A stretch of 47,794 bases of DNA, taken from positions 1-47,794 of the IMG/VR virus record IMGVR_UViG_3300037851_000408; one strand, 5' to 3'. The notes beneath the pieces are model-generated. The model had not been told where the DNA came from and did no database searches. It saw only the letters and a list, made by a program, of their open reading frames with translations. Source of the stretch: a virus (taxonomy: Duplodnaviria; Caudoviricetes). Below, in pieces: positions 13,760-47,376 of this stretch. A program made the translations under genes and the position numbers. Every line of letters starts with the position of its first letter. The stretch's first letter is position 1.

Positions 13760-14095
13760 TCAAGACCCCGTACCTTGTTGTCTCCATGTGATTCGGTAGA
13801 AGATGCGGTTGGCCACGCGCCCCACGTCCGACCATATTTCCGCATTGACCTTCCAACAGTTTCCAAACGATCCGAGCAGGACAGCGTTGACCGAGGTCGT
13901 CACGGTGGGGTCGCCCTTGTTGGCGCGGATGGTTGATACCATGTCTGTCGTCGCAACGCCCTCTTGGATGATGTCCGGCAGTGTCAGGTTGTAGAGTTTG
14001 TTCACAGAACCGGTGACACCGGGGATGTCGTGGGAAATCACGTTCCCATCGGAATCCTGCAAACGATAATGAGCAGTCAAGATTGGCATGGTCAA
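13760..14095 (-). CDS. distal tail-like protein
   Basis: Immediately follows the tape measure. Confidence 0.55.
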   Translation of the reverse strand: MTMPILTAHYRLQDSDGNVISHDIPGVTGSVNKLYNLTLPDIIQEGVATTDMVSTIRANKGDPTVTTSVNAVLLGSFGNCWKVNAEIWSDVGRVANRIFYRITWRQQGTGS

Positions 14096-17000
14096 CCCAT
14101 CCCATAGTTGGTTTCGTAATTGTATCCGATCATTTCGTCACCAGCGCCGATTGGTGGGATAACGCCGCCGCCTACTCCTCCACCACCACCTGCACCAGCG
14201 CCCCCACCCCCACCACCGCCGCCCCTGTTTTGGAGTGCGCCAGCAGCGGCAATCAACGCTTGTGCCGCCGCATCCAATTTTCCTGCGGAGCCGTCCAACA
14301 AACCGCTGGACGCAATCAAAGATGTTCCTGCGTCCCACAACTCGTCGCTTGTATCGGACAGGTCACTCGCCGATTTGGAAAGTTTTTTGTCAACATCGTT
14401 TTGGGTGATGAGAACTTCGGGGTTCTCTGCGGGATCAACGGATGCCAAATCGTCCGGCTTGCTTGGTTTTCTGGATTGTTCGTCGCGTTCTTTTTGTTTC
14501 CGTACAAGTTCATTGTACAGCAATTCTCGTTGAAGCGCACTCGGACCCTGCTTGTCGTAAATCCCGCGATCTCCAGTTGACTTATCGGAAAACCCCAACC
14601 GACCAGACGAAACCAATTTGGCCTCATGTTCCTCGCTGGCCTTCTCGACGGCTTTCCTGTCATCACCGCGTTTGAAATCGCGTATATCCTGCCGAGCCTG
14701 ACGGCGTTGGCGCGACCGGTCCCGCGAATCCTCCCTGCCGCTTTCGAGAAATTGTTTGTCTTTTAATGCCTCGACACGCTCCTTCTCCACATCCAACTTG
14801 TCAGCTTCTTCCCCTATACGGACATTCAAATCATCGCGTCTTTCGCCCAAGTTGCGTACCGCGTCTAAATTGCCAGCCTTTCGTTCCCTTTCGATTTGCT
14901 TTTCGACATCATCACGTTCTTTGACGAATGAATTGAAAACCGTCTTTTGCAACTGAAGTCTTTCGTTGGCCGCGAACGACAAACGGCCACGGGTTTGCTC
15001 ATTGGTCAGACCAATTCCACTGGTTGCCCTGATTTGGGATACTTCGACATTGCTCTGTAATTGGGAAACATCTGTCCTGCGTTTCCGTTCTGTATTGCGC
15101 TGTTCATCCTGAATCCTGATGGCCGCCTGACGCTCGTTCTCCTGACGACGAAGCAGTTGCTTGCGTTTTTCAATGAGGGTTTCCTCGGATTTATATTGAT
15201 TCTCGGCCAGTTGATTGAGGGCCTGTTTTTCTTGGTCTCCAATGTTGTTGTTCAGATTGTTTTCGGCTTTTTTGATGTTCGTTCGCTGACGCAACAATTT
15301 CAAACTTTCGTCGAGCAATCCGATTTGGATTTCTAGTTGTCGGTTGTCATCACTGAAATCGAGGTCGATGGCCGATTCGGTTGCCTGCAACCGGATTTGC
15401 TCCGATTTCAGCGGGGTGGTTTGAGTCAAGAAATCGCTTTCGGCATAGCCGGTCAACCCACGGAGTCTGCTGAAATCCTCTTGGCGCTGACGAATCTCCT
15501 TGTTGTTATCTTTCAGGTCTTTAACGTACTTGGCATTGGAATCGGACAGAGATTTTAACTGTTTCTCGCCCTGTTCAACGTCTCTTTCGTTGGATTCCTT
15601 GTTGAGTTTCAACTGCCGTTTGCGCTCGAAGAAATCTTTGTTTTGCGCCTCAAACTCTACTTCGTCAATTTCGGTTTTTGGATTTTTGTATAAACGCACC
15701 TTGGCTTCCGCCACGGCCACCGCGCTGTCCGCCTCCGCAATCTGCTCCGGTGTAACGGCAGCCGCCCTTTCATCTTGTCGTTTCTTCAATTCGCGTTCGG
15801 CAAGCCTGATTCTTTCCTGCGGATATGCCTCCCTGCGTTGCTGCAAAACATCTTCCACGTTTTCAAGCTCTCTGTCGATTCCGGCACCATTCTGGCGCAA
15901 GAAATCCAATCCCTGTTTGAACCGGTCAATTTCCTGTTGGCTCTGCTTATCAATGAGTCTCTCTTGGGCCTCGGTGACGCCCTTGAAACTGGTCGCGGTC
16001 GCCGCCTCTGCTTGAATGTCTCCGATGTCGGCTGCCTGCTGGCGCTGCAATAATGATGCGTCAAACCCCTGTTGTTCTTGTCGCAACCTTGCGCTGTCAT
16101 CATAAATCTTCAAGATTCTGCGGTTGCTAAAAGTTCGCGCATTGCCCAATTTGAACTCGGCATTAACATCTTCAATCGTATCTTGAAGCGACAACAGGTT
16201 TTGTTTCGCCAGTGCCTCTTGTTCTTTTAACAGTTCTATCAACCTGTCTTTTGATGATTGCAGCAAGGCTTTATCAATGCCCTCGGATGCCAAGGCGGTT
16301 CCACCCGGAAAAAAGCTGGCGGTCCCGATTGAGCCAGCAACGGCTCCTTGTATCACATTGCGTGTTGCCCTACTCAACGCATCCGGCAACGACAACTGCG
16401 TAATAGGCTTGCCTGCATTGTCGATTTCGGCTTTCAGTTCCGCTATCTGATCGCTCAATGCCTTGGATGGCACCGAGGTTCTTGTAAAGAACGCCGATAA
16501 TTCAGCCACGGATGACTCCAGTGGCGTGAATTGCGGTGCTTCTCGCGTGCCCAGTCCGACGCGGAACGCAGCCCTCGACGCCAACCTCTGCTGTTCTATC
16601 GGCGTCAGCCCCTCGATCTTCGGCACAGACGACTGTATCTGATTGGCCGCCTCTTGCAGCGACGTGCCGAGTTCGTTGGCCAGATTGACGGATGCACGCA
16701 ACGCCGTATTGAAACTGGCGGTGTCAGTGACCATGTTCTTGAGGATTTCACGCGAGCCAGCGAGCGCGTCATCCGGCTTGATTCCAAATGAGCGAAACAG
16801 GCTGGACTGACCCCTGAAAATGTTCGCAGCGGTCGATCCTTGCAGGCCAAGTTTGTTGGCCTCGAAATCAATCAAGCCGCTGCCCCTGTTAATGATTCCA
16901 TTTTCCGCCCTTTTCTCGGATGCAATAACCCCGGCTTGAAGCGCACCCAATATCCCAAACGTGGCCCCTGTCCCACCAAGCGCACCACCGAACAACTTCA

Positions 17001-20000
17001 TCATTAGATCGGGCGCAGCCGTTGCCCCAAGGCCAATGATCGACGACAACGGACCAAACAACGGAAGTTTTTCTCCCGACAGGTTGTTGGCAATCTGGTT
17101 GAACCCTCCAGACACGCCGAACAAAAGCCCAAACCTCTGACCCATGAGCAACTGGCGGTCGAAGTTTTGACGGGCGGATGCCTCGCGCCGTGCTTCGCGT
17201 AGTCTCGCTTCCGACCTGCGCGTATTTTCATCACCAAGTATCTCGGCTTTGGTTGGCTCCCTCGCGCCAAATCCTTGCCTTCCCTCTGCAACGTCCGTGT
17301 AAAACTGCGTCTTGCGCTCACGCACCCTTTCTCTCGCATCTTTTTCAATTTCCTGCTTGCGCCGTCGATGGAACCGTCGCAGTCCTTCCAGTTGTTTTTG
17401 GTACAAATCCTCGTCGGACGACAGGATGGCGTTACGCGCCGAATCGGATATTGGACGCTCGCCAACAACCTTGCGTTGTTCGTCAATACGGTTGAGAGCC
17501 GCTTCGCGCCTGCCATACGGCGTGCGCTTGAGCGTTCGTGCCAACCCCGCTTCTTCGTCCCGGAGTTCCTCGAATGATGCCGCAAGCCTCTGTTCGGGAT
17601 TGAACTCGAATTGTTTCCCCTTGAGTTGGGCAACCTGCTGACCCAGCTTGCGGATAGTGGCAATCAACGGGGCGCGATTTCGCAGGATGCCAACTTGTTC
17701 CGGGTCCAACTGTTCGCCCTCGGCCAGCGACGGCTGTCCAATAGACGTGCGGAGTTTGTTGATCTGGTCGCGCAAGATTTTCGACTTTGGTTTGTCGTTC
17801 TCGATTTTCGCCAGTTGTTCCGCCGCTGTTGGCTGTGCGGTTGCCGTGTTCGCCCGCTTTTCCTGTATGTAGCGGCGCTCCGCTTCACTGAACAACTCCG
17901 GCACGCCGGGCGTCACTCCCTTGATTTTGCCGCCTCCCTCGCGCAACTGGTTGAGATACCCCGAAACGAGTTGTTCCTCGTTGTCGGTGAACTTGCGGAC
18001 CGGCGGAGCAGCGGGAGTCGGCGTTCGCGCCTTGGCTTCTTCTTGATTCTTGATTTGCTCGGCCTGCGCCCGTTCTTCCGCTTCCTTGCGCTGGCGAGCA
18101 ACACCTTCTTGAATCTGATCGAGTTTGGTTTTCTGTTTTTCCGGTTGTGGCACCGGAACGGTTTTGGGCGGTATTCGACCGGTGTTTTCCGCCTCGATCA
18201 TTTGGGCAAGCTCGTCCGGTTTGCGTTCCAATCCGAGCAACTTACGCAATTCTTCGGGCGTCTTTTGGGATGCCGACGCCGGAACCGGTGGCAGTTTGGC
18301 TGGTTCCTGCAACCCAAGAAGTTGTCGCTGTTTTTTGCCCTTTTCCGAGATTGGCTTGCCTTGTTCCGAGATTGGCTTGCGCTGTTCCGGTTCTGGTTCT
18401 GGCTCCGGTGCCGCCGGTGGTGCCTTGGGTGGTTTCTTGGGCGGCACGACCGGTGGTTTCGCGGCCTTTTTAGGCTTTCTTTTTTTCTGTTCTTCGTCGA
18501 ACTCTTTTTTGTCGCGCTCGCCGAACACGTCCGTGGTGGGTTGGGCCTGTGTTGGAACCTCCAACTGGACAGGCTCGACTCCCACTTGCGGTTCTTCAAC
18601 GGTCGTCGTCTGTTGCGATTTGAGATATGCCCTTAATTGACGCGCCTCAACCAGCCTGCGTGCATTTTGTTTTTTGATGTAAGCCTTGTTCTTTCCCTTA
18701 CTCGGTCTCAATGGTTCCTCAAGGCGTTCGGCTGCTTTTTCCACATCCACGTTATTTTGGGAAAGATACGATGCGGTCGCCTCGCCGCGAGCAGCGCGAT
18801 ATACTTCCTTGCGTGCTTCTCTGGCTTTCTTGACCTCCTCGGCCATGCGACTCTCCTGTTCCGCTCGCAGTCGCGCCGCTTCTTGTTTTTTGGATGCCCT
18901 TTCCGTTTCGTCGTCAAGCCGCCGCTGTTGTTGTTCCTTAATTCCAGCGGTTCGTTGTTGCTCGGCTCGGATTTCGTTTTTTTCTTTCGTGCCGGACGCC
19001 CGTTTCATCGCCTCGTCCTGACGCCGGGCCACTTCCGCGAGAGATTCAAGATTGCGCTTCGCTTGGCTTGCGCCGCTTGGCAACTCTGTAACTTGTGAGG
19101 GTTGTTCATTAACAATAGAAAGCGGAGCCTGGGGCTTCAAACCGGCGACGGACGATTTGATTTGAGACAATTTTTGATATTCCTCAATCGCCCTGATTTC
19201 ACGCTGGTCGCGTTCGTAATGCTCCAATGAATATGACCGTTTTGGGTCTAGGAAATTAGGCGCTTTCGTTGAGCGCAACCCTTGCAGATGCGTCCCGACA
19301 TCGCGCCCTGCGCCCTCAAGTCTCTTAACGATTTCCCGTCCCTCGGAAATCAATCTTTCTTGTTCCGTTACAGGGCCGCCAACTTCTTCCAATTCTTTTT
19401 TGTGTAAGTCACGCAGTTGGATTGCCGTACTTAATGCCTTTTTGGGCATCCGAAGTTGGTATCCATGCCGTCCTTTTTGTTTTAATTCCTCAATGCGACG
19501 CCGTTTTTCAGCAACCTTGGCCTCGGCTTCAAGAAGCTGTCTCTGTTTGAAATCAACATCCCGTATGTCTCGCGTCTGAATATCAGCCTGCTGCAATTTT
19601 TCAAAGTGCAACTGTTTTTGTTGCGGCTGAATTGCCGCAGGCGTTAATTCAGGCTGGCGAGTAGGCGGCGATGGTGGTTTTACAGGCTCAAGTTGGCCTG
19701 AATGAAGTTTTGTTTGTTGTCCGGGCTTCCAATCGCTTTTGGATGGTGCTTTCGTAATTTCGATGTTGGCGTTCCCTTGTTCATCGACCTCCAAGACTCT
19801 TGCTTGATGGCTCCCGCTTCGTCCAAAATCCTTGCTGCGTATTTTGACTATGGAATCAGCAGTTAATGGGTCGCCCCCTCCCCACGGCGCTCTCAACGAT
19901 CTTGATTCGTCTTGATGAACGGGCTTCTTTTGCGGCTCCGGCTTTGGCGGAAGGCGCGTGGATTCCTGCTGTAAAACCCGACTCTCAACGCCCGTCTGTT

Positions 20001-21144
20001 GCGATTTGAGAAAGGCCCTCAAGTGACGCGCCTCAACCAGCCTGCGTGCATTTTGTCTGTTATTGTGATCTTCGCGTTCTCCCTCCAGAAGTTTAAGTGG
20101 TTTCTCAAGGCGTTCGGCTTCTTCCAATATGTCGATTCCTCCCCCGGAAAGGTGCCATGCAGCGTGCCTGCCGCGAGTAGCACGATATGCTTCCTTGCGT
20201 GCTTCTCTTGTTACCTTGATGTCCTCGGCACTTACTGATGCGGGGGCACGGCGTCGTTGGATTTCTTCGCGCTCGGCCTGCGCCAACGCGGTTGCGTCCA
20301 CATGCGTCTGCTGCGCCACCGGCAAGTCGGCTTGCGCTCGTTGCAACCGTTGTTGCTGCTGGGCGAGGCTCTGTTTGTTCCCCTGCTGTTCGTACAGCTT
20401 GATGAGCCGATTGCTGTCCTCGATTTCGCGCTGGAGTTCCTGAACACGTTGTCCCGATTGGACGGCAGTTTGTTGTCGTGGTGTCTGCGTCAACGAATGT
20501 TGAATGGCCTGTTGCGCTTGTTGGACATCCCGCGCCGCTTGCGCCTTCTTGAGTCGGGCTTCGTCAAGCTGCCCCTTGACGACATCGGCCTTTTGGATGA
20601 ACTGATTGACTTCTTCCGGCGGAGTGTGGGGCGCTTTTTGCGCCGCCTTGACGCTGCGATTGGCGCGTTTTTCAGCGCGTTCAAGGTTGGCAACTTCGGA
20701 CACAGCGCGTTGCAGTCGTTCCTTGGCCTGATTCAGTTTGGTCTCGGCGTCACCAATCGACTTCAATACTTGGTCAACATCCCGGCTGATGGACTGCTTG
20801 ATCGCGTTGACCCCGCCGCTTGTGCTGGTGCCGCCAAACAGGTTGACCGAAACCTGACGCGACTTGGCCGCACGGTCGATGGTTTGCTTGGCCTGCTCGA
20901 TTTGTACGGTGACAGCCTGCGTGCCCTTTTCGATTTGCTGTCTGGTCTTGCCTTCGTCGATGGTCACGGTCGGAGTCATGTCCAACCGCGCCCCGGACGC
21001 GCCGGTGTTCCCCGCCGCCCCGCCTCCACCGCCCGCAACTTGGCTCGTCAACGCCCGAACGTCAGCCAGTTGTTTCTGGACGGTTTCCGTCAGCCGTGTT
21101 CCTACGGTGAAATTGACCTTGATGTTCAGTGATGGGCTAGGCAT
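14092..21144 (-). CDS. tape measure-like protein (2350 aa)
   Basis: Longest ORF, follows tail chaperones, coiled-coil rich with a central Gly/hydrophobic segment. Confidence 0.8.
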   Translation of the reverse strand: MPSPSLNIKVNFTVGTRLTETVQKQLADVRALTSQVAGGGGGAAGNTGASGARLDMTPTVTIDEGKTRQQIEKGTQAVTVQIEQAKQTIDRAAKSRQVSVNLFGGTSTSGGVNAIKQSISRDVDQVLKSIGDAETKLNQAKERLQRAVSEVANLERAEKRANRSVKAAQKAPHTPPEEVNQFIQKADVVKGQLDEARLKKAQAARDVQQAQQAIQHSLTQTPRQQTAVQSGQRVQELQREIEDSNRLIKLYEQQGNKQSLAQQQQRLQRAQADLPVAQQTHVDATALAQAEREEIQRRRAPASVSAEDIKVTREARKEAYRATRGRHAAWHLSGGGIDILEEAERLEKPLKLLEGEREDHNNRQNARRLVEARHLRAFLKSQQTGVESRVLQQESTRLPPKPEPQKKPVHQDESRSLRAPWGGGDPLTADSIVKIRSKDFGRSGSHQARVLEVDEQGNANIEITKAPSKSDWKPGQQTKLHSGQLEPVKPPSPPTRQPELTPAAIQPQQKQLHFEKLQQADIQTRDIRDVDFKQRQLLEAEAKVAEKRRRIEELKQKGRHGYQLRMPKKALSTAIQLRDLHKKELEEVGGPVTEQERLISEGREIVKRLEGAGRDVGTHLQGLRSTKAPNFLDPKRSYSLEHYERDQREIRAIEEYQKLSQIKSSVAGLKPQAPLSIVNEQPSQVTELPSGASQAKRNLESLAEVARRQDEAMKRASGTKEKNEIRAEQQRTAGIKEQQQRRLDDETERASKKQEAARLRAEQESRMAEEVKKAREARKEVYRAARGEATASYLSQNNVDVEKAAERLEEPLRPSKGKNKAYIKKQNARRLVEARQLRAYLKSQQTTTVEEPQVGVEPVQLEVPTQAQPTTDVFGERDKKEFDEEQKKRKPKKAAKPPVVPPKKPPKAPPAAPEPEPEPEQRKPISEQGKPISEKGKKQRQLLGLQEPAKLPPVPASASQKTPEELRKLLGLERKPDELAQMIEAENTGRIPPKTVPVPQPEKQKTKLDQIQEGVARQRKEAEERAQAEQIKNQEEAKARTPTPAAPPVRKFTDNEEQLVSGYLNQLREGGGKIKGVTPGVPELFSEAERRYIQEKRANTATAQPTAAEQLAKIENDKPKSKILRDQINKLRTSIGQPSLAEGEQLDPEQVGILRNRAPLIATIRKLGQQVAQLKGKQFEFNPEQRLAASFEELRDEEAGLARTLKRTPYGRREAALNRIDEQRKVVGERPISDSARNAILSSDEDLYQKQLEGLRRFHRRRKQEIEKDARERVRERKTQFYTDVAEGRQGFGAREPTKAEILGDENTRRSEARLREARREASARQNFDRQLLMGQRFGLLFGVSGGFNQIANNLSGEKLPLFGPLSSIIGLGATAAPDLMMKLFGGALGGTGATFGILGALQAGVIASEKRAENGIINRGSGLIDFEANKLGLQGSTAANIFRGQSSLFRSFGIKPDDALAGSREILKNMVTDTASFNTALRASVNLANELGTSLQEAANQIQSSVPKIEGLTPIEQQRLASRAAFRVGLGTREAPQFTPLESSVAELSAFFTRTSVPSKALSDQIAELKAEIDNAGKPITQLSLPDALSRATRNVIQGAVAGSIGTASFFPGGTALASEGIDKALLQSSKDRLIELLKEQEALAKQNLLSLQDTIEDVNAEFKLGNARTFSNRRILKIYDDSARLRQEQQGFDASLLQRQQAADIGDIQAEAATATSFKGVTEAQERLIDKQSQQEIDRFKQGLDFLRQNGAGIDRELENVEDVLQQRREAYPQERIRLAERELKKRQDERAAAVTPEQIAEADSAVAVAEAKVRLYKNPKTEIDEVEFEAQNKDFFERKRQLKLNKESNERDVEQGEKQLKSLSDSNAKYVKDLKDNNKEIRQRQEDFSRLRGLTGYAESDFLTQTTPLKSEQIRLQATESAIDLDFSDDNRQLEIQIGLLDESLKLLRQRTNIKKAENNLNNNIGDQEKQALNQLAENQYKSEETLIEKRKQLLRRQENERQAAIRIQDEQRNTERKRRTDVSQLQSNVEVSQIRATSGIGLTNEQTRGRLSFAANERLQLQKTVFNSFVKERDDVEKQIERERKAGNLDAVRNLGERRDDLNVRIGEEADKLDVEKERVEALKDKQFLESGREDSRDRSRQRRQARQDIRDFKRGDDRKAVEKASEEHEAKLVSSGRLGFSDKSTGDRGIYDKQGPSALQRELLYNELVRKQKERDEQSRKPSKPDDLASVDPAENPEVLITQNDVDKKLSKSASDLSDTSDELWDAGTSLIASSGLLDGSAGKLDAAAQALIAAAGALQNRGGGGGGGGAGAGGGGGVGGGVIPPIGAGDEMIGYNYETNYGMG
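18607..18843. repeat. diverged ~237-bp repeat, copy 1 (copy 2 at 19993-20229)
   Basis: EARKE.YRA.RG...AERLE.PL...QNARRLVEAR.LRA.LKSQQT occurs twice. Confidence 0.9.
19993..20229. repeat. diverged ~237-bp repeat, copy 2
   Basis: Shared blocks such as TGACGCGCCTCAACCAGCCTGCGTGCATTTTGT. Confidence 0.9.
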
Positions 21145-26110: not shown

Positions 26111-26458
26111 TCACTTCACACGTACTTTGGCTGACTCGCGCATACGGAACAACCGAATCCAAACCGCGTTGGGCGTGATGCCAACAATGGCTGCTATCTC
26201 TTTGCCGCCAAGACGGTTGTGATAATGAAGTCGCAATATCCTCAAGTTGATTTCGTCGTTGCCAGCCGCCTCGAACATGGCATCAACAAACTCGGCAATT
26301 TGTTTTCTGGATGGCATGATGAAAACCTCACTGCTTTGGATTGGTTCTTGTTCGTGTTGTTGACGATACAGCGACCTCTGAAACTCGCTCGCCGCGCCTG
26401 CGTCGCTCACGACCGATGATGGACAACCGAGTGCGTGCTCATACACAACCCGCGACAT
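26111..26458 (-). CDS. sigma70 region 4-like HTH protein
   Basis: ILRLHY...GKEIAAIVGITPNAVWIRLFR. Confidence 0.75.
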   Translation of the reverse strand: MSRVVYEHALGCPSSVVSDAGAASEFQRSLYRQQHEQEPIQSSEVFIMPSRKQIAEFVDAMFEAAGNDEINLRILRLHYHNRLGGKEIAAIVGITPNAVWIRLFRMRESAKVRVK

Positions 26459-27266
26459 TGACAACCTCCTTGTAGTGTTCGGATAACGCTCCATTGGCGA
26501 AGAATGGTGCCCCGCCGTTGCAAATGCGCTTGATCGGGAATCGCCCGTTGAGCGACGGCGAGCACGTAATTTTCATGTAGTCGTTCAGCTTCTCCGGGTC
26601 TTTGGATTCCAGCGCATCACGGTAGGCGCTCAACCCATCGTGAACGAAAGTGAACGGCGTTTCCATTGCGAACAGGGCCGGTATCAATTTGTTGATGCAA
26701 AATCCCAACCGACAGTCTGAACCCCGGTATTGCAGCATCTCCATATCGTGACCGCCAACAGCGCGAATCGCCGCCAATGGAGCGCACCACAGGGCACCCC
26801 AAGTCAGTCCGAGGCTCGGCGGCAAGATGCTCAAACCCGGTTTGCACCATTTCGTTCGCTGATCGCGGACGGTGGTTCCTTCGCTGACATACACGATTTC
26901 ACCGTAGAGCAACAGATTGTCATGGTCGCAATGCCGCAGCCAGTCAAACCAGCCGTGGGCCATCACCCCGTCATCATCCATACTGATGAAATAATCGCCA
27001 CGCGCTTCTTTGAACATGATATTTTGCGCGAGGGCGCTGGTCCGCCTCATCAGGTTGCGCTGGCACTGAAACACGCGCACCGGACACGGCGGGGTCCGGT
27101 CATGGACAAGATCGCACGCCGCGTCGAGCGTGTCATCGTCGCTGCCGTCATCGACAACGATGATCTCGCAGTCATCGAGGTTTTGGTTGATGATGCTTTT
27201 CCATAGGCAAGCATGACGCCACGCGGGGGCGCGATTGTAGGTTGAGATTCCGATGGTGTATTTCAT
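26439..27266 (-). CDS. GT2 glycosyltransferase
   Basis: ISTYNR, EIIVVDDGSDD, SMDDD, VGGHD..YRGSD. Confidence 0.9.
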   Translation of the reverse strand: MKYTIGISTYNRAPAWRHACLWKSIINQNLDDCEIIVVDDGSDDDTLDAACDLVHDRTPPCPVRVFQCQRNLMRRTSALAQNIMFKEARGDYFISMDDDGVMAHGWFDWLRHCDHDNLLLYGEIVYVSEGTTVRDQRTKWCKPGLSILPPSLGLTWGALWCAPLAAIRAVGGHDMEMLQYRGSDCRLGFCINKLIPALFAMETPFTFVHDGLSAYRDALESKDPEKLNDYMKITCSPSLNGRFPIKRICNGGAPFFANGALSEHYKEVVNVAGCV

Positions 27267-27868
27267 GGTTTTTTGAAGGCGATTAAAGACCCCACGCGCC
27301 CTATCAGTTTCCACAGGTGACGGACGGCGGCTTCGTCGATGGCGGCTTTCATCTCTGGAAACTTCTTGTCGGGGTCGTCATAATCGTGGAAGGCAATGAT
27401 GCCGCCCGGCTTCACCAATGGAAGCCACTCCTCCAATTCTTGATACAGGTGTTTGCGCTTGTGATCGGTGTCGATGAACAGGAATCCCACCTGCCATTCG
27501 TGAAACAGAAGCCATCTTGGGGCTTTGCGCGAGTCGCCCGTCCACAGGTACGGCATCGGTTCCAGCTTCAAGCGATACCAAGCCTCCGTCACCTTGTCCG
27601 GTGTTGTTCCGTGCATTTCGGCGTACTTCCACCAGTCGATGCAGAGCACGGGGTTCCCAAGTTCGTTGGCGGCGCTGGCAATCACAAACCCGCTGCGGCC
27701 ACAGAACGTCCCAAGCTCCACGGCCCACGACATCGCATCCATCCCGCTTGCGAGTTGGTACAGATACGCCGTTTCTTCACTGCTGATCTGGCCGGTGGGG
27801 CGAACGTGGCCATCCGCCGTTTTCAGCCCGATTGTCTTTGCCGCCTTGAGAACGTGTTCTATTGACAT
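27263..27868 (-). CDS. class I SAM methyltransferase (Methyltransf_24-like)
   Basis: VELGTFCGRS, FLFIDTDH, VKPGGIIAFHDY. Confidence 0.9.
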   Translation of the reverse strand: MSIEHVLKAAKTIGLKTADGHVRPTGQISSEETAYLYQLASGMDAMSWAVELGTFCGRSGFVIASAANELGNPVLCIDWWKYAEMHGTTPDKVTEAWYRLKLEPMPYLWTGDSRKAPRWLLFHEWQVGFLFIDTDHKRKHLYQELEEWLPLVKPGGIIAFHDYDDPDKKFPEMKAAIDEAAVRHLWKLIGRVGSLIAFKKP

Positions 27869-28551
27869 TGGTGCATCCTCCACGGTGATAGAAGTTTGAC
27901 GATTTTGGTGTGCAGGGCGTCGTCACCAAACCCAAACTTCTTGTAAAGTTCCTCCGAGACCGCCTGTTGTTGCAACCAGCGCGTCTTGCGGCTGATGGCC
28001 ACGCACGGAATCGACTGCGTTTGGGTCAGCACGGCAAAGAACGGGTCAGCATAGTTGGGAACCGGAAAATCGCGCATCGAGCATTTGATGCGACCGGCGC
28101 GGACGGCAATGGAATTGGTGGCAAGCAAATGGCAACACACGTCCTGCGTCAGCGACTCTTGGAAATTGATCTTGCTTCTGTCTTTGTAATAGCTGGTCAC
28201 CGGTTCCTTGATCCACACACCGTGCAGCCCGACCACCGGCCTGCCTTTGTAGTGATCAAGCCGCTCGTTCATCCGCTCGGCGTAATCGGGCGGGTAGATG
28301 ATGTCGTCATCGCAGATGAAAATGGTGCCATGCACAATCTTGTCCAACCACCAGAACTTCCCGGCGTCGCCATGATTTTTCCCGTGAATGGCGTATGAAA
28401 CTTTCGGGTGATGGAGAAAGTCGGGCACTTCCGTGTATTCGTTGAGATACACGCGCACTTCGTCCATCTGCGGCAAGAGGCTTTTTACGGTAACTTCAAG
28501 TTGATCTCGCCGCTTGGGGTAAGTGGCCAAGCAGGCTGTATTGGTCGTCAT
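27859..28551 (-). CDS. GT-A fold glycosyltransferase
   Basis: ATYPKR, GDAGKF, CDDDIIYPPDY. Confidence 0.85.
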   Translation of the reverse strand: MTTNTACLATYPKRRDQLEVTVKSLLPQMDEVRVYLNEYTEVPDFLHHPKVSYAIHGKNHGDAGKFWWLDKIVHGTIFICDDDIIYPPDYAERMNERLDHYKGRPVVGLHGVWIKEPVTSYYKDRSKINFQESLTQDVCCHLLATNSIAVRAGRIKCSMRDFPVPNYADPFFAVLTQTQSIPCVAISRKTRWLQQQAVSEELYKKFGFGDDALHTKIVKLLSPWRMHQCQ

Positions 28552-29266
28552 AAAATCTCCAAGTTTTCATCGGTGGGCGGTGGTCGTGCATCACACTTTT
28601 CGTCTCGTCCTCCTTCGTGAATGAGACAAGTGGATAATAGGCGGTCTTGCGCGAGCGGCGCATCCCCATTGCAATCGCCTTGGCTACGCCGCTCGAAGCG
28701 TTTGGATTTTCCTTCCACCATCGTTCGTCCGGCTGTGGAACGCCGTTTGGAAGGATATGAAAAATCGAGGCGTCTGTCATGAACACGCACTCGACCCATT
28801 TGCAGCACATAAACTCGATGTTCTTCCAGACGGTCAACAGCGGCCTGCCGGTGTCGTACACGTTCTCGCGTCGCTCGTGCCTGCCGTCCAGCCGCAGCAT
28901 CATGATGCCACGCTGGCTGTCCTGAATGGCGTTCCAGTAATCCATCGTCACGCGAAAGAAATCTCGGCACAGGAAATTGTCGTCTTGAAGGAAATAATAG
29001 AAATCCGCCTGATGGGTTGCCAGCCGCTTGAGGGCGTCGTTGTACGTCTTGTAAAACCCGCGTTTGCCGCGACGTTTCGGGTAACGGACATACCAGACCG
29101 GTGCGCCTGCTGTTGCCGCGACCATCGGGGTTTCGTCCTCGCTGCAATCGTCAAATACATGAATGTCCATCGCGCACTCAACCGGCTTCATCTCGCACAC
29201 TTGGGCGAGCAGCCTCTTGAGAAGCGCGGCGCGGTTGCAGGTGGTGATGACAACGGAAAGTTTCAT
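28496..29266 (-). CDS. GT2 glycosyltransferase
   Basis: SVVITTCNR, VFDDCSED, FLQDD. Confidence 0.88.
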   Translation of the reverse strand: MKLSVVITTCNRAALLKRLLAQVCEMKPVECAMDIHVFDDCSEDETPMVAATAGAPVWYVRYPKRRGKRGFYKTYNDALKRLATHQADFYYFLQDDNFLCRDFFRVTMDYWNAIQDSQRGIMMLRLDGRHERRENVYDTGRPLLTVWKNIEFMCCKWVECVFMTDASIFHILPNGVPQPDERWWKENPNASSGVAKAIAMGMRRSRKTAYYPLVSFTKEDETKSVMHDHRPPMKTWRFYDDQYSLLGHLPQAARST

Positions 29267-30144
29267 TGGTAGCGAGGAATCAACATGCAAAGACAGTTGA
29301 GATGCGCCGGAAACGCAGCCAAGACCGGGTCGCCAACGGGATGAAATCCCGCAAGCAAATCGCACACGTCCTTTCGGGGATGACGCGGTGAAAGCACCCA
29401 TTCATATCCCAGCAATTTGTCCGTGGCCTCGGCGTAGTCGCGCAACCCCTTGTGAAACGCGCCGTTGGCCTCCGTGTCGGCAATAATGGCGGTCTTGGCG
29501 TAGGCCGAACCGCGACGAGTCAACTGGCCGCTGAACGTCTCTCGACCGGTGATGATGGCCTGCAAGGTGCGTTTGTAGTCGCCGATGCCCTCCCCCATCG
29601 CCGAGCGCACCCGCACCAGCGAGCGAATGTTGAAGTCGAGGTCGGACCCGACCTTGGCCAACTGCTCCGACATGGGAATCCTGATTGCGCCACTCAACAA
29701 AAAATCATTCAACCCGGTACGAGCCAGCAACTCGCGCTGGGACAACAGCAAAACATACCCGGTGCCCAACACGATCTTCAACTGTTCCTCCGCCTCGTCT
29801 TGGCCGAGGGCGATGGCGCGTTCGATGTTCTCGGTGATGATTGCCTCCACCCTGTTCATCTGGACGGCAATCATGTTGGCGAGCGCCGGTTCAATGTCGT
29901 TGGCGTCCACCACGCCGCTGTTGTTGTCGTGCATCAACAGGAACCCAATCACCTGCGCCGTGAACTGGTCAAAACTTTTTTGCAGTTGCCTCTCCACCTC
30001 CACCGCGTCACGGAACATCTCAAGCCGTATCGGCGTGAGTTTCTTGCCGCGCAACAGGTTTTCCAGTTTGCCGAACTGCGATACTTCGGCGATTTCAGCG
30101 CAGCCGCATTGATTGTGGTGCTTGTGGTTTGCCGTTGGTTCCAT
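29263..30144 (-). CDS. minor head/morphogenesis protein (Mu gpF/SPP1 gp7-like)
   Basis: IADTE...W...C.....PAHLNCLC C-terminal motif; follows portal. Confidence 0.85.
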   Translation of the reverse strand: MEPTANHKHHNQCGCAEIAEVSQFGKLENLLRGKKLTPIRLEMFRDAVEVERQLQKSFDQFTAQVIGFLLMHDNNSGVVDANDIEPALANMIAVQMNRVEAIITENIERAIALGQDEAEEQLKIVLGTGYVLLLSQRELLARTGLNDFLLSGAIRIPMSEQLAKVGSDLDFNIRSLVRVRSAMGEGIGDYKRTLQAIITGRETFSGQLTRRGSAYAKTAIIADTEANGAFHKGLRDYAEATDKLLGYEWVLSPRHPRKDVCDLLAGFHPVGDPVLAAFPAHLNCLCMLIPRYQ

Positions 30145-31717: not shown

Positions 31718-34153
31718 TCAACGTGCAAGCATCAGTGCCGAGCGCACCATGACCCTTTCCTGCATCGGAACGAGGATGTTGAACGCCCCGCTGGATGCGT
31801 CCACGATGTCGTCCTTCATGCGTGGCTGGCCGAACAATGTCAACTCGTCGAGAAACTTGGCGTTCCAACCGGCGGCCTTGATGGTGACAAGCCCGTTTTG
31901 TGCGGCGCTGGCCAGCGGTCTTGCCCGGAGCAGTTTGTTGGTGTTGGGGTAGGAAAACGTGTACCAGTGGCCGGACAAGAGACGCTTCAACCGTTCTTTT
32001 TCACCCAGTCCCGCCGCGCCTGGCTGTTGTTCGATGCCGACGCAGACACGGGGTCCATCGGAAATGGCAGTCTGCTTGATGATGCGGTCAACCTCCGGCG
32101 GCGTGGAACGGAAATGAACCAGATCGAGTATTTCAATGGTGCCCTTGTGTGTCTTGCCCATCAGGACACCAGCGGTGAAATCGGGATTGGTATTGTTCCG
32201 GGTTGGAAGTTTCCCGGCCATGTCCCAAAACCGCACCATCTTGACGTAGTTGCCATCCAGCGCCGACTCATCGGCGACGTTGAACCATTCCCGGTGGAAC
32301 ACGTCGCCGGACTTTCTGACATTCCAATCGCCGTTGAGCAGTTGGCGGCGCAGGTGCAGCGGCAGATGCGACAGGCTTCGCTTGTACGCCTCGCGGTCGA
32401 GAAACGGGTTGTCGTCCACCTTGGCCGGTATGAAAATCCTGTTCTCGGTCTGGTTTTCGATGAAGTAACTCTTGATGAACTCGTGGCTGATGCCGCCGGG
32501 GTTGGCGCTGGCCCTCATGCGGATGGGGACAGGGAACCCCTCCGGTCGGCGCAGGCGCGAGTGCATGTAGAGGTACATTTCTTCCGTGAAGTTTTCCAAC
32601 TGGTCGAAGAAAATGTATTGCCACTCGGTTCCGAGATACTTGTAGATGTCGCTCTCGTGCTCCATGTGGCCGAACTGGATGACCGCTCCTTCATTGGATT
32701 TGAAGTTGCGGTTGGCCTCGCTCCAAGACACCTGCTTTTTTCGCTCGAATGGTGCCAGCCACTCGCGCATCATCGGGATTAATCCGCCTTTCATGGTCAA
32801 CTCGCTCCATGTGCGGCGCAAGAGCAGGGCGGCGTACCCGTTGACATCGAAGTATTGCAGTGAGGCAATGGCCCCGCCTGCGGAATTGTGCGTCACGATG
32901 AAGTCGTCAGCCACAAACAATCCCGATGGGTGGTCAACCGTGATGCACTTTGTATGCTCACGACCGGCACGAGTGATGTTGGTGATGGTGCGCCAGCCAG
33001 TTTTTTGTTGTGGCGTGCAACGGTTTTTCTTCCGCGTCAGATGGAAAAGGCAATCGGTATCTTGTCCAGATACGTGTATGTTATAGGCGAGACGACATGA
33101 AACTTTTGTGCCGTTTTTGTCCCGGTACGAGGCTTCCTTTTCATAAATTGTCGCTTTGAACCCGATGCTTCTCAAGAGCCATTGGACATCCAATGCCAAC
33201 TGTTTTGACGTGCTGCAATAGGAAGCCTTGCCGTCTTTTTGAATGGTTCCATCTGTATCAAACAATCCCTGCAACAGGTTGATTCGGTCGGCCACCGGTG
33301 CCAGACGGTAAGGCTCTGGAATAAACTTGTTCCACGAACTTGCGTTTTTCAGCCCCATGTCATTCAGCAATCGCAACGTCCGATTGTCGTCGCGTAGTAC
33401 GTGAATATGATTCTTGCGCTGAACATCAATTCCAAGCAGACGGATTCGCTGATAGATTTCCTCGTCCACCGATGAGATTTCAATTTTGTAATCGGTAATG
33501 TGGCCATCCCCAATCACCACACCGAGCAGGTAGGGGTCAACCAATCGCTTGTGACCCCATCGGTTATCAATGACACGCGAAAACTCAAGCGGCTGTGATA
33601 GCGGCACCATCGGTCGATATTGTCGTTTGTTCTCTGATTGCTGTTCCATCCATCGCGCCAACCACCATGTCGGGACAACACGACCGGCAACCCCTCGTTT
33701 CGCAAGAGTCTTTTGTATTTTGCTGGCCATTTTCACCAGCCACAAATGATCGGCGTCCACCCTGATTTTTGCGCCATCGGAAAACTCAACGTCATATACA
33801 TCCTGCTCACCCCTGTCTGTGACCTGCATGATTTTAGTGAGCGACCCATCCGGCGCATAAACACGATGTCCAACCTCAAGGTCAAAAAACGACTGGGGGC
33901 CGTACTGCGTCATGACAATCCCATTTTTTGTCAACCCCTTCCCTCCGCCCGCCGCGCCTCCGAACAGACATTCTTCCCCCATGTACATCAGCAGGGCGTG
34001 TTGCTTCTCGTTGTGGCGACCTTCTTTGTCCGTGTACCACGCGGTATTGTAAATGGAACGTCGCGGCGTCACGTTTATCAGACCGGCCTTGATGGCCATA
34101 GCCAGCGGATTTGTTGCTTCGCGTCCCGGTTCGTGGTTATATTCTTCCGACAT
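31718..34153 (-). CDS. terL: terminase large subunit with intein (start 34153 or 34099)
   Basis: Walker A GGAAGGGK/S split by the intein, IFFDQ Walker B, SANPGG, RFWDMA, DDIVDA nuclease motifs. Confidence 0.93.
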   Translation of the reverse strand: MSEEYNHEPGREATNPLAMAIKAGLINVTPRRSIYNTAWYTDKEGRHNEKQHALLMYMGEECLFGGAAGGGKGLTKNGIVMTQYGPQSFFDLEVGHRVYAPDGSLTKIMQVTDRGEQDVYDVEFSDGAKIRVDADHLWLVKMASKIQKTLAKRGVAGRVVPTWWLARWMEQQSENKRQYRPMVPLSQPLEFSRVIDNRWGHKRLVDPYLLGVVIGDGHITDYKIEISSVDEEIYQRIRLLGIDVQRKNHIHVLRDDNRTLRLLNDMGLKNASSWNKFIPEPYRLAPVADRINLLQGLFDTDGTIQKDGKASYCSTSKQLALDVQWLLRSIGFKATIYEKEASYRDKNGTKVSCRLAYNIHVSGQDTDCLFHLTRKKNRCTPQQKTGWRTITNITRAGREHTKCITVDHPSGLFVADDFIVTHNSAGGAIASLQYFDVNGYAALLLRRTWSELTMKGGLIPMMREWLAPFERKKQVSWSEANRNFKSNEGAVIQFGHMEHESDIYKYLGTEWQYIFFDQLENFTEEMYLYMHSRLRRPEGFPVPIRMRASANPGGISHEFIKSYFIENQTENRIFIPAKVDDNPFLDREAYKRSLSHLPLHLRRQLLNGDWNVRKSGDVFHREWFNVADESALDGNYVKMVRFWDMAGKLPTRNNTNPDFTAGVLMGKTHKGTIEILDLVHFRSTPPEVDRIIKQTAISDGPRVCVGIEQQPGAAGLGEKERLKRLLSGHWYTFSYPNTNKLLRARPLASAAQNGLVTIKAAGWNAKFLDELTLFGQPRMKDDIVDASSGAFNILVPMQERVMVRSALMLAR
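32885..33937 (-). mobile_element. class 3-type intein with LAGLIDADG homing endonuclease (351 aa)
   Basis: Starts GLTKNG, block B DHLW, YLLGVVIGDG and LLQGLFDTDG, block F TKCITV, ends VTHN before Ser. Confidence 0.9.
34114..34143 (+). promoter_or_regulatory. putative sigma70 promoter for near-leaderless terS
   Basis: TTGCTT-N18-TATATT, ATG at 34152. Confidence 0.45.
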
Positions 34154-34658
34154 GCAAACACCAGATAACGCCGAACCGGCAAAAGTGCAAGGCGACAAAG
34201 CCAAAAAACCGCGCCGCAAGCATTGGCGCGGGAGACGGTACGAAGTGTTGAAGTACGTGGCTGAGGTGTACACCGTCAGCCGCGCCGCCATTCTGGCCGA
34301 AGTCCCGATTGACACGGTGAAATGGTGGATGAGGATTGACCCGTTGTTCAGGGAATCGGTCGAGGAAGCGCAGGCGACCGCCATCGACCGAATCGAGTCC
34401 CGACATTTTGAGGCCGCGTTCGGCAACGATACGGCCAGCCGGATCCACCTGCTCAAGAGCCACAAGGGTCACTTATACGCCGAACAAACAAGACCAGAGG
34501 CGACCGGCGGCGGTGCCAAGACGGTGAACATCCTGCAAATCAACACCGACCCGCAGTTGGTAGCCAGCGCCCTCAAGATTCTGTCGGGGACTGGTCTTGG
34601 ACAGCCTTGTATCGACGCTGCAAACACCCCGGCACCCGAAGCCTCCGACGAGGAATGA
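34152..34658 (+). CDS. terS: terminase small subunit-like HTH protein
   Basis: SRAA..AEV...TV.WW...DPLF..SVEEA...AID.IE...AA..ND....HLLK pattern; adjacent to terL. Confidence 0.75.
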   Translation: MQTPDNAEPAKVQGDKAKKPRRKHWRGRRYEVLKYVAEVYTVSRAAILAEVPIDTVKWWMRIDPLFRESVEEAQATAIDRIESRHFEAAFGNDTASRIHLLKSHKGHLYAEQTRPEATGGGAKTVNILQINTDPQLVASALKILSGTGLGQPCIDAANTPAPEASDEE

Positions 34659-45469: not shown

Positions 45470-45866
45470 AAATAGCAGAAACGACAAATACGCCCCGTGC
45501 GTGATTAAGGCCATCGAAACCAAGTATGGCACGATGCTCTCGATGGGCATCAAGGTGGATGAGTTTATCACCTTTTTGGAGTCCAACACTAGCGACAAGG
45601 GATGGGTCAACATCACCATCAAGGAACGGCGTGATCCGAGCGACGTGTCCACACACTACGCGGAGCTTTTCGTCCCGCAAAAACGTGACGGCCAACCGAG
45701 GGGTGGCCGCCCCAAAGAGGAGGATGATGGGCAAGAACAGGATGCTCGACGCCGATTTGAACGCAGCCGAACCGATAGAGACCGGGAACATGATCGTTGG
45801 CCCAAGCACCGCAGCGAGGGCCGCCCGTCACGCGACTCCGACGACGACGATAACATTCCGTACTAA
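45459..45866 (+). CDS. SSB-like protein
   Basis: Short beta-rich core (KGWVNITI), acidic tail DDDDNIPY. Confidence 0.6.
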   Translation: MKDRNSRNDKYAPCVIKAIETKYGTMLSMGIKVDEFITFLESNTSDKGWVNITIKERRDPSDVSTHYAELFVPQKRDGQPRGGRPKEEDDGQEQDARRRFERSRTDRDREHDRWPKHRSEGRPSRDSDDDDNIPY

Positions 45867-45889
45867 CGGAAACACAACAGGAGCAAATC

Positions 45890-46213
45890 ATGACACAGCA
45901 ACAGTTCCAACTCGACGACAAACGCCCACAACCGGACGAGCGCCGGTTGTCTCACAGTAATGACGTTGCACCCGCCAAACAAGCGGGTGCATCACAGAAG
46001 GCCACACGCACCAAGTTGCAGCAAGAGGTATTGACCATACTCAACAGGTTCGGCCCGTTGACCGATGATAAGTTGTCTGAATACTTCACGGAATACGACA
46101 AGGGCACGGTCAGAAAACGCCGCTCCGAGTTGTTCCAGATGGGACTGGTGCAGGAAGCCGGTGTTGGCGTCAGTGACAGGGGCAAACCGATGACAAAGTG
46201 GGAAGCTATATGA
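45890..46213 (+). CDS. winged-helix protein
   Basis: GPLTDDKL...TVRKRRSELFQMGLV. Confidence 0.75.
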   Translation: MTQQQFQLDDKRPQPDERRLSHSNDVAPAKQAGASQKATRTKLQQEVLTILNRFGPLTDDKLSEYFTEYDKGTVRKRRSELFQMGLVQEAGVGVSDRGKPMTKWEAI

Positions 46214-46668
46214 CCCATGAGCAATACAACCAACTGCTCCTCGGAGCCAGCAAGTCAACGCGGAACCTTAATCTTCCGGCTGACGGTGCCGGGGAGGATG
46301 CCAAGCTGGAACGCCATCCTGTCAATGCAACACTGGGCAAGGTACAAGTTCAAGAACGAACTAGCGCGCGTTTTCTTGTGCGCCTTACTTCTACACGCAA
46401 ACGGCTCATCGACGAGGACAACCTCTGCGAGAAGTACCATGTCGATCTATGCCGATACGCTGGCGTCTTACCTGACGACGACCCAAGCCAAACGCGCATC
46501 GAAGTCCGCCAAGTCAAGGCGGAAAAAGGCCAAGACGAAACGGTCGAGATAGAGGTGTTTGCGATGGAAACCAACCAACCAATTCCCCGCCCCTCCCCCA
46601 ACCCATCCGTCGATGGGAGCCGCGAGTCGGCTGGGGGCAGGGACACGAACGAGGTTGTCGAGTTATGA
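46210..46668 (+). CDS. rusA: RusA-like Holliday junction resolvase, catalytic (C-terminal) portion
   Basis: RKRLIDEDNL....VD...AGVLPDD. Confidence 0.75.
   Translation: MTHEQYNQLLLGASKSTRNLNLPADGAGEDAKLERHPVNATLGKVQVQERTSARFLVRLTSTRKRLIDEDNLCEKYHVDLCRYAGVLPDDDPSQTRIEVRQVKAEKGQDETVEIEVFAMETNQPIPRPSPNPSVDGSRESAGGRDTNEVVEL
46217..46552 (+). CDS. nested +1-frame ORF carrying the RusA N-terminal motif
   Basis: LTVPGRMPSWN.....HWARYKFK resembles the PxxPSxN...HWxxRxKxK start of phage RusA proteins. Confidence 0.6.
   Translation: MSNTTNCSSEPASQRGTLIFRLTVPGRMPSWNAILSMQHWARYKFKNELARVFLCALLLHANGSSTRTTSARSTMSIYADTLASYLTTTQAKRASKSAKSRRKKAKTKRSR
46620..46643. repeat. 24-bp direct repeat, copy 1 (copy 2 at 47353-47376)
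   Basis: CCGCGAGTCGGCTGGGGGCRGGGA. Confidence 0.9.
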
Positions 46669-47352: not shown

Positions 47353-47376
47353 CCGCGAGTCGGCTGGGGGCGGGGA
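47353..47376. repeat. 24-bp direct repeat, copy 2
   Basis: One mismatch to 46620-46643. Confidence 0.9.

Follow-up and report, generated by a model that had tools for sequence, protein, structure and literature searches.

Prokaryotic genomes rarely contain long overlaps between genes of the same strand, and to our knowledge the overlapping gene pairs whose products interact encode two different proteins. In the two-component spanins (lambda Rz/Rz1), one gene is embedded in the +1 frame of another and the products form a complex; gene callers often overlook the embedded member of the pair (PMC6139136, PMC5295617). Eleven cases of viral overlapping genes with interacting products in the same pathway are cited in a review (PMC8227390). 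RusA of E. coli consists of a four-stranded sheet and two helices, with catalytic residues D70, D72, N73, K76 and D90/D91, an Arg-rich DNA-binding segment at residues 65-69 that includes R69, and DNA contacts at residues 13-16 (PMC1636454). A search confined to the open-access literature turned up no account of RusA being split or overprinted. We describe here a phage locus in which two conserved overlapping frames, judged from their sequences, quite probably encode a two-chain RusA-like resolvase, the product of frame B completing the fold of the product of frame A. The gene layout may be unprecedented.

The window, i.e., the whole stretch of 47,794 nt that was analysed (IMG/VR record IMGVR_UViG_3300037851_000408, Caudoviricetes), is an entire linear virus record with an estimated completeness of 65% and contains terminase, portal and integrase-like genes. 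The locus is part of a rightward replication/recombination module, with an exonuclease gene and a replication-initiator-like gene as 5' neighbours and a DNA methyltransferase gene as 3' neighbour. No second RusA-like gene and no RuvC gene was found in this 65%-complete record. The features of the locus are as follows.

46210..46668, plus strand: ORF A, 152 amino acids, putative catalytic C-terminal part of a RusA-like resolvase
ORF A residues 1-53: poorly conserved leader that overlies ORF B
ORF A residues 54-117: core, strand-helix-strand-strand
ORF A residues 118-152: private tail
46217..46552, plus strand: ORF B, 111 amino acids, frame A+1, entirely within A; putative N-terminal element of RusA type, with likely strand 1, the PSWN turn, HW and helix 1, followed by a further predicted helix and a basic tail
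46210..46219, plus strand: tandem starts ATGACCCATG, the ATGs of A and B 7 nt apart
46271..46405, plus strand: conserved core of B, 45 codons, in which P, S, W, N, W, R, K, F and L are conserved at 90% or above
46307, plus strand: W of PSWN in B, 104 nt upstream of D68 of A
46369..46398, plus strand: segment under constraint from both frames, where the first beta strand of A coincides with the hydrophobic face of B helix 1 (F53, L54, L57)
46373-46387, plus strand: F53/L54/L57 of B, inside the bases of the first strand of A
46396..46479, plus strand: active-site motif of A (R63, R65, D68, D70, N71, K75, D79, R82, D90)
46457..46552, plus strand: second helix and Lys/Arg-rich tail of B, with T81 and L82 held by synonymous constraint in A; missing from some distant relatives

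An earlier note on this DNA had reported the two ATGs 7 nt apart, with A starting at 46210 and B at 46217 and open for 111 codons, and had placed a frame-B helix and a frame-A strand on the same nucleotides. The ORF coordinates were confirmed, and F53, L54 and L57 of B (46373-46387) do fall within the A strand (46369-46398). The third frame is interrupted by stops throughout. The upstream gene (45890-46213) is in the same frame as B; its TGA overlaps the ATG of A, and the ATG of B lies 4 nt past its stop. A sequencing error behind the split was ruled out by the same layout in every anchored relative and by a contig at word depth 205 that spans 45800-46637 letter-identical and with no gaps, although its run may itself be the source of the window.

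Several other features of the record were observed. A 19-nt exact direct repeat is present at 46620-46638 and 47353-47371, on both sides of the methyltransferase gene; the first copy (46620-46638) is the break point of an assembly contig from run X1 and is crossed by the private C-terminal tail of ORF A. The terminase large subunit (31718-34465, minus strand) is unusually long at 915 amino acids, and two parts of it match separately (about 130-550 and 528-900). Two glycosyltransferase-like genes (26439-27314 and 28496-29401, minus strand) are located inside the head gene block, and an ORF of 2350 codons occupies 14092-21144 (minus strand).

Frame A carries the motif R63-x-R65-x-x-D68-x-D70-N71 followed by K75, D79 and D90. 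Among 77 A cores, D68, D70, K75 and D90 were invariant, N71 was conserved in more than 90%, and R63 and R65 in at least 90%. The two residues immediately preceding D68 are hydrophobic, with no positional counterpart of RusA R69, and the Lys is one residue further from the Asn than in E. coli RusA. The window's A matched the RusA-like family phrog_34 (E 5.8e-4), and A cores matched phrog_1682 weakly, at profile positions 89-142. Pfam PF05866 gave no match for the window's A or the 77 close A cores; a weak Pfam RusA match appeared in 4 of 25 distant A cores (best E 0.0033). The A and B profiles found no RusA match among PDB sequences. Aligned to seven one-frame actinophage RusA-like proteins, the A profile covered residues 53-122 (prob 94.4, E 8.5e-8).

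The A core was modelled with a pLDDT of 89 as three strands and a helix. In a full-library search with VIA-align the best match of the A model was 1q8r_A residues 51-118 (Z 4.9, rmsd 2.8, 66 residues aligned), a modest match with tautomerase folds within 1 Z, and the Foldseek comparison with RusA was likewise modest (prob 0.95, TM 0.66 by query, E 0.15-0.25). In the ESM Atlas, A hit unnamed viral clusters, and short clusters of 71-82 amino acids resembled the A core. The equivalent of RusA residues 1-50 is missing from A, both in the model and in the profile alignment. The earlier assignment of frame A to the catalytic half of RusA is upheld by the motif residues, the phrog_34 match and a model that aligns to RusA residues 51-118 only. 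In most relatives the stop codon lies 153-165 nt past D68, against 255 nt in the window's A; the last ~34 residues of the window's A are a private extension, which corrects the earlier note.

Frame B has a segment that resembles a strand, together with PSWN, HW and one long helix. The B core aligned weakly to residues 5-38 of the same seven one-frame actinophage proteins (prob 49.3, E 1.7e-4), which had been fetched with frame-A sequences as the sole bait and six of which are annotated as RusA-like. In a column-shuffle control the match scored 24.6 versus 16.8 for the best of 100 shuffles, and 0 of 100 reached the score. The family matched by most B cores was again phrog_1682 (7 of 77, best E 0.028, profile positions 29-70). 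The window's own B gave no Pfam or PHROG match, and the B profile did not match eight RusA proteins from the phylum Verrucomicrobiota, mostly of the E. coli type (prob 0.4). Modelled alone, B contained one short and two long helices but no strand; a fold search with this model returned generic helical hairpins only and no RusA match, and the ESM Atlas gave nothing above 0.85 for the B core. The claim that frame B holds the missing N-terminal element of RusA is partly borne out: the motifs are present, and RusA-like residues 5-38 are matched above 100 of 100 shuffles, but the match is weak and the lone model is strandless. The tail of B is rich in Lys and Arg (median net charge +10) and is missing in some distant relatives, so only the part of B from strand 1 to helix 1 looks essential.

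In the main live rival, which we regard as unlikely, B has a role of its own as a regulator, an inhibitor or a protein that binds DNA, and may be what is left of a RusA N-terminus; A then acts alone or as a homo-oligomer. B's RusA similarity is indeed weak, and more than half of B (the second helix and the basic tail) is without a RusA counterpart. The confident in silico folding of the A core alone and the 71-82-residue ESM Atlas clusters that are like it point the same way. However, when both frames are compared with two independent RusA-like profiles, B falls exactly on the stretch missing from A, in order and with no overlap, and distant relatives cut B down to just this RusA-like part. 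No anchored locus was seen with A but without B. RusA itself has four strands and two helices and touches DNA through residues 13-16 (PMC1636454), which also argues for B as a part of the A fold.

To gather relatives, A alone and, separately, B alone were used as the query. In the first set, 255 of 278 rows were anchored automatically; in all 255, B was in frame +1 and the W of PSWN was exactly 104 nt before the first catalytic Asp of A. Sixteen further rows of DEDG type had PLWN at the same 104-nt offset. Divergent seeds yielded 128 additional loci, 122 of them anchored and all in frame +1, with an offset of 104 nt in 118, 149 nt in two, 107 nt in one and 116 nt in one. The rows contain repeats of the same contig, and representatives with less than 85% nucleotide identity numbered 77 + 25. 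The first set had 78 such representatives (median core identity 0.62), reduced to 77 once L038, in which both frames diverge past the motif, was removed; five contig-end rows and L053/L109 were also left out before counting, as were L322/L323 and L418-L421 of the second set. L024 has a one-codon insertion and was left out of the downstream columns.

The earlier note had held that overprinting would be contradicted by homologues with both motifs in one frame or by stops in frame B of relatives together with activity of A alone. B was unbroken through the helix in all 77 + 25 representatives. Both halves were complete in one frame in 0 of 185 B-like proteins screened, with the best 150 of 298 B-like cluster representatives covered, and no complete one-frame form occurred among 149 proteins from the A-like and B-like searches. 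The same overlapped layout, with an offset of 101 nt, was present in vir555 (GenBank BK063671.1, Caudoviricetes sp.; L436:318-665 and 364-651), a record with a listed archaeal host (Methanomicrobiales) and annotation of frame B only; its A matched phrog_34 at E 1.2e-8. We concluded that the dual-coding locus is real and widespread. The enzyme is likely made as two separate chains, because ~100 distinct relatives keep both frames open and each frame matches a different part of RusA.

In the stop test, the protein of one frame was held fixed and synonymous codons were resampled from flanking genes in the 77 representatives. With A fixed, B had 1 stop versus 134.9 expected over -42..+126 and was open in 76 of 77 representatives versus 11.5 expected; the sole B stop was that of L234, at +55. 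With B fixed, A had 0 stops versus 110.1 expected over -150..-42 and was open in 77 of 77 (16.9 expected). The third frame contained 426 stops. The codons of A are those synonyms that yield F53 of B in 73 of 73 cases (31.4 expected), L54 in 67 of 68 (15.4), L57 in 77 of 77 (24.4), T81 in 67 of 74 (44.6) and L82 in 62 of 67 (12.3). Residue 55 of B is S, C, F, Y or L, yet the first base of its codon is T in 77 of 77, and the strand residue of A thereby stays hydrophobic. Since codon limits act from both frames, the same bases serve the helix of B and the first strand of A. The earlier note had asked whether both frames stay open with suppressed synonymous variation, and both tests on the 77 representatives gave this result. 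The representatives are related (median core identity 0.62), so that the counts are not independent events and are inflated by relatedness; the direction of selection on both frames is clear despite this.

These data largely refute the reading, which we hold to be very improbable, that frame B is a shadow of the conservation of A or that the split is an assembly error or a pseudogene. Synonymous sites and stop avoidance reveal selection on B, and the most conserved residues of B sit where A varies, although the middle of B (STKTT) partly follows from the DEDN codons of A. The layout is identical in ~100 representatives drawn from numerous assemblies, with genome records of isolates among them, against one of 77 representatives (L234) with the stop at +55. 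The protein databases also seem to speak for a shadow: gene callers mostly report A (1079 A-like clusters) and seldom B (29 B-like clusters; a separate search gave 298 B-core-like representatives). However, embedded genes are known to be missed by gene callers (PMC6139136).

The earlier note had left two options, two overprinted polypeptides that assemble in trans into one nuclease fold, or an unusual recoding event. In the latter case the ribosome would begin a single chain in B and pass into A, either through a -1 frameshift or by hopping back and reading the shared segment twice, and we consider this improbable. The constant 104-nt offset and the constant frame relation would fit a programmed event. 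However, a plain shift cannot hold both F53/L54/L57 of B and the A strand, though both are selected; A, which has a start of its own, is kept open well upstream of any join, and B is kept open well downstream. The earlier estimate that a simple -1 shift would drop roughly 15-20 residues was about right, the product being 9-18 residues short: from the N of PxxN to the first catalytic Asp there are 43-52 amino acids in nine one-frame relatives versus 33.7 codons here. The CGTTTTC near 46370 that had been named as a slip site is not conserved among relatives, and other heptamers were rejected, an XXXYYYZ position between the motifs being common to at most 6 of 77. A search for pseudoknot-free RNA structure with 38 and 76 representatives found none that is conserved (mean z -0.49 to +0.37 in 10 intervals, consensus fold empty).

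A spacing of 149 nt in two relatives (L331/L334) would permit a full-length product from one shift, and 7 of 185 B-like database proteins continue in frame into A-like sequence, as recoding would have it. These seven chimeras (P0198, P0204, P0230, P0261, P0271, P0172 and P0241) lack strand 2 or DxDN. Because their joins are at differing places, strand 2 never occurs together with an intact DxDN, and every one of them forms a cluster by itself, we read them as errors or broken copies. The option of two overprinted polypeptides is favoured by the own starts, the two frames kept open, the double constraint on the shared bases and the lack of a conserved shift site or RNA structure; assembly of A with B would complete it.

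Of the 77 representatives, 74 have an own ATG ahead of the first element of B (33-35 expected) and 69 have an own ATG for A (47.8 expected). The ATG of B was 4-34 nt downstream of an A start in 56 of 70 loci. Shine-Dalgarno-like words were uncommon (13 of 70 loci for the A start, 9 of 70 for the B start); in vir555, GAGGAGG is found directly ahead of the ATG of B, within A. The start codon of A is followed by the base A in 56 of 70 loci and is therefore overlapped by a TGA in frame B. A single mRNA would yield both A and B, with ribosomes initiating at two neighbouring start codons. Initiation would often be coupled to termination of the upstream gene, which is a plausible route. An FPNA/LPNA motif recurs in the A leader of many relatives (e.g., L020, L034, L182) at the ATG in frame B; it may reflect the start of B and not a protein motif.

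Variant loci were also found. In short forms of B, the stop is 2 nt before the D codon of A (L313, L335), at +13 (L311) or at +25 (L417), and little is retained beyond the strand, turn and helix. The 7-nt distance between the two ATGs recurs in L335, where B has 70 amino acids, and in L417. L331 and L334 (about 1000-1350) have 15 extra codons between the B helix and the A strand, giving the 149-nt offset, near the one-frame spacing. Both frames are open in these two loci, with no ATG for B and a GTG available, and in L331 the B-derived codon limit on the A strand is gone (ATC at -27). They possibly represent an intermediate or a later insertion. L322 and L323 (about 1000-1310) keep the two-frame layout; A of L322 reads DPRANL, with the second catalytic Asp lost, and is possibly inactive, and L323 has the same A segment.

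A tree of 60 A cores (70 columns, L317 left out) gave no direction of change, with L331 placed among the 104-nt forms on unstarred branches. The one-frame Bcep22 and Mx8 proteins clustered with L417 on long branches. The layout likely originated by a frame-changing deletion in the linker between helix 1 and strand 2 of a one-frame gene, which a second start would have rescued. Six relatives were in prokaryote genomes. The hosts of the branch that contains the window's locus are likely Verrucomicrobiota, because four of the six are in records titled Verrucomicrobia, two of these being Verrucomicrobium isolates.

In the mechanism that we propose, strand 1, helix 1 and the turn that contacts DNA would come from chain B, while the remaining three strands, helix 2 and the catalytic acidic residues would belong to chain A. 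A and B would co-fold into one RusA protomer, and a pair of such protomers (A2B2) would act in phage replication/recombination by binding and cleaving Holliday junctions or other branched DNA. The basic tail of B may be an accessory DNA-binding element in the branch of the window's locus. One small enzyme domain is probably made as two complementary chains from overprinted genes, with the B helix and the A strand on the same bases, kept across a large environmental virus family (more than 1000 A clusters) and hidden because gene callers see one frame. If true, a domain whose two pieces share their bases would be a natural instance of gene fission combined with overprinting. The locus would offer a small and cheap system for studying split-fold assembly, how one sequence meets two structural demands, and how a 1:1 ratio is set by two closely spaced starts that lack a clear Shine-Dalgarno signal. 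The layout would also account for a large set of seemingly truncated RusA proteins in the databases, and apparent fragments may have a hidden partner frame.

Compared with known systems, the locus resembles Rz/Rz1 in that one ORF, with a start codon of its own, is embedded in another on the same strand; both frames are selected here, and A and B would bind each other. Rz and Rz1, however, are two distinct membrane proteins for which descent from separate genes has been proposed, in contrast to complementary pieces of one domain. The viral overlaps, as far as PMC8227390 describes them, pair an old gene with a de novo overprinted protein and are not two halves of one ancestral fold. The nearest one-frame proteins found were actinophage RusA-like proteins (Gordonia phage Denise gp65 and Ruthy gp70, Mycobacterium phage Bromden gp78 and Microbacterium phage Footloose gp53; phrog_34 and phrog_1682), for which the RusA-like name is an annotation. 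Residues 53-122 of these proteins align with A, and residues 5-38, where the P..N..HW pattern is shared, align with B, but the proteins are encoded by a single ORF, with 47-52 amino acids from the N to the first Asp versus 33.7 codons over two frames. The closest described enzyme is E. coli RusA (DLP12 prophage; PDB 1Q8R, 2H8C, 2H8E; PF05866). Enzymes of the RusA family are dimers that cleave four-way junctions symmetrically and depend on Mg. RusA is a single chain of 120 amino acids, whereas the equivalent of its residues 1-50 is apparently in another frame at this locus; B does not match E. coli-type profiles, and the counterparts of Arg69 and Lys76 are offset in A. Since the two parts are not on a single chain, the locus is classed as a split variant and not as a canonical RusA member. 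In its favour as a RusA relative, the A model overlays residues 51-118, and the DxDN, the Lys and the Asp further on are conserved, as are R63 and R65 ahead of the first Asp, with D68, D70, N71, K75 and D90 of A corresponding to D70, D72, N73, K76 and D90/D91 of RusA, and the locus is situated in a phage replication/recombination module beside a replication-initiator-like gene and an exonuclease gene. The locus likely works like RusA.
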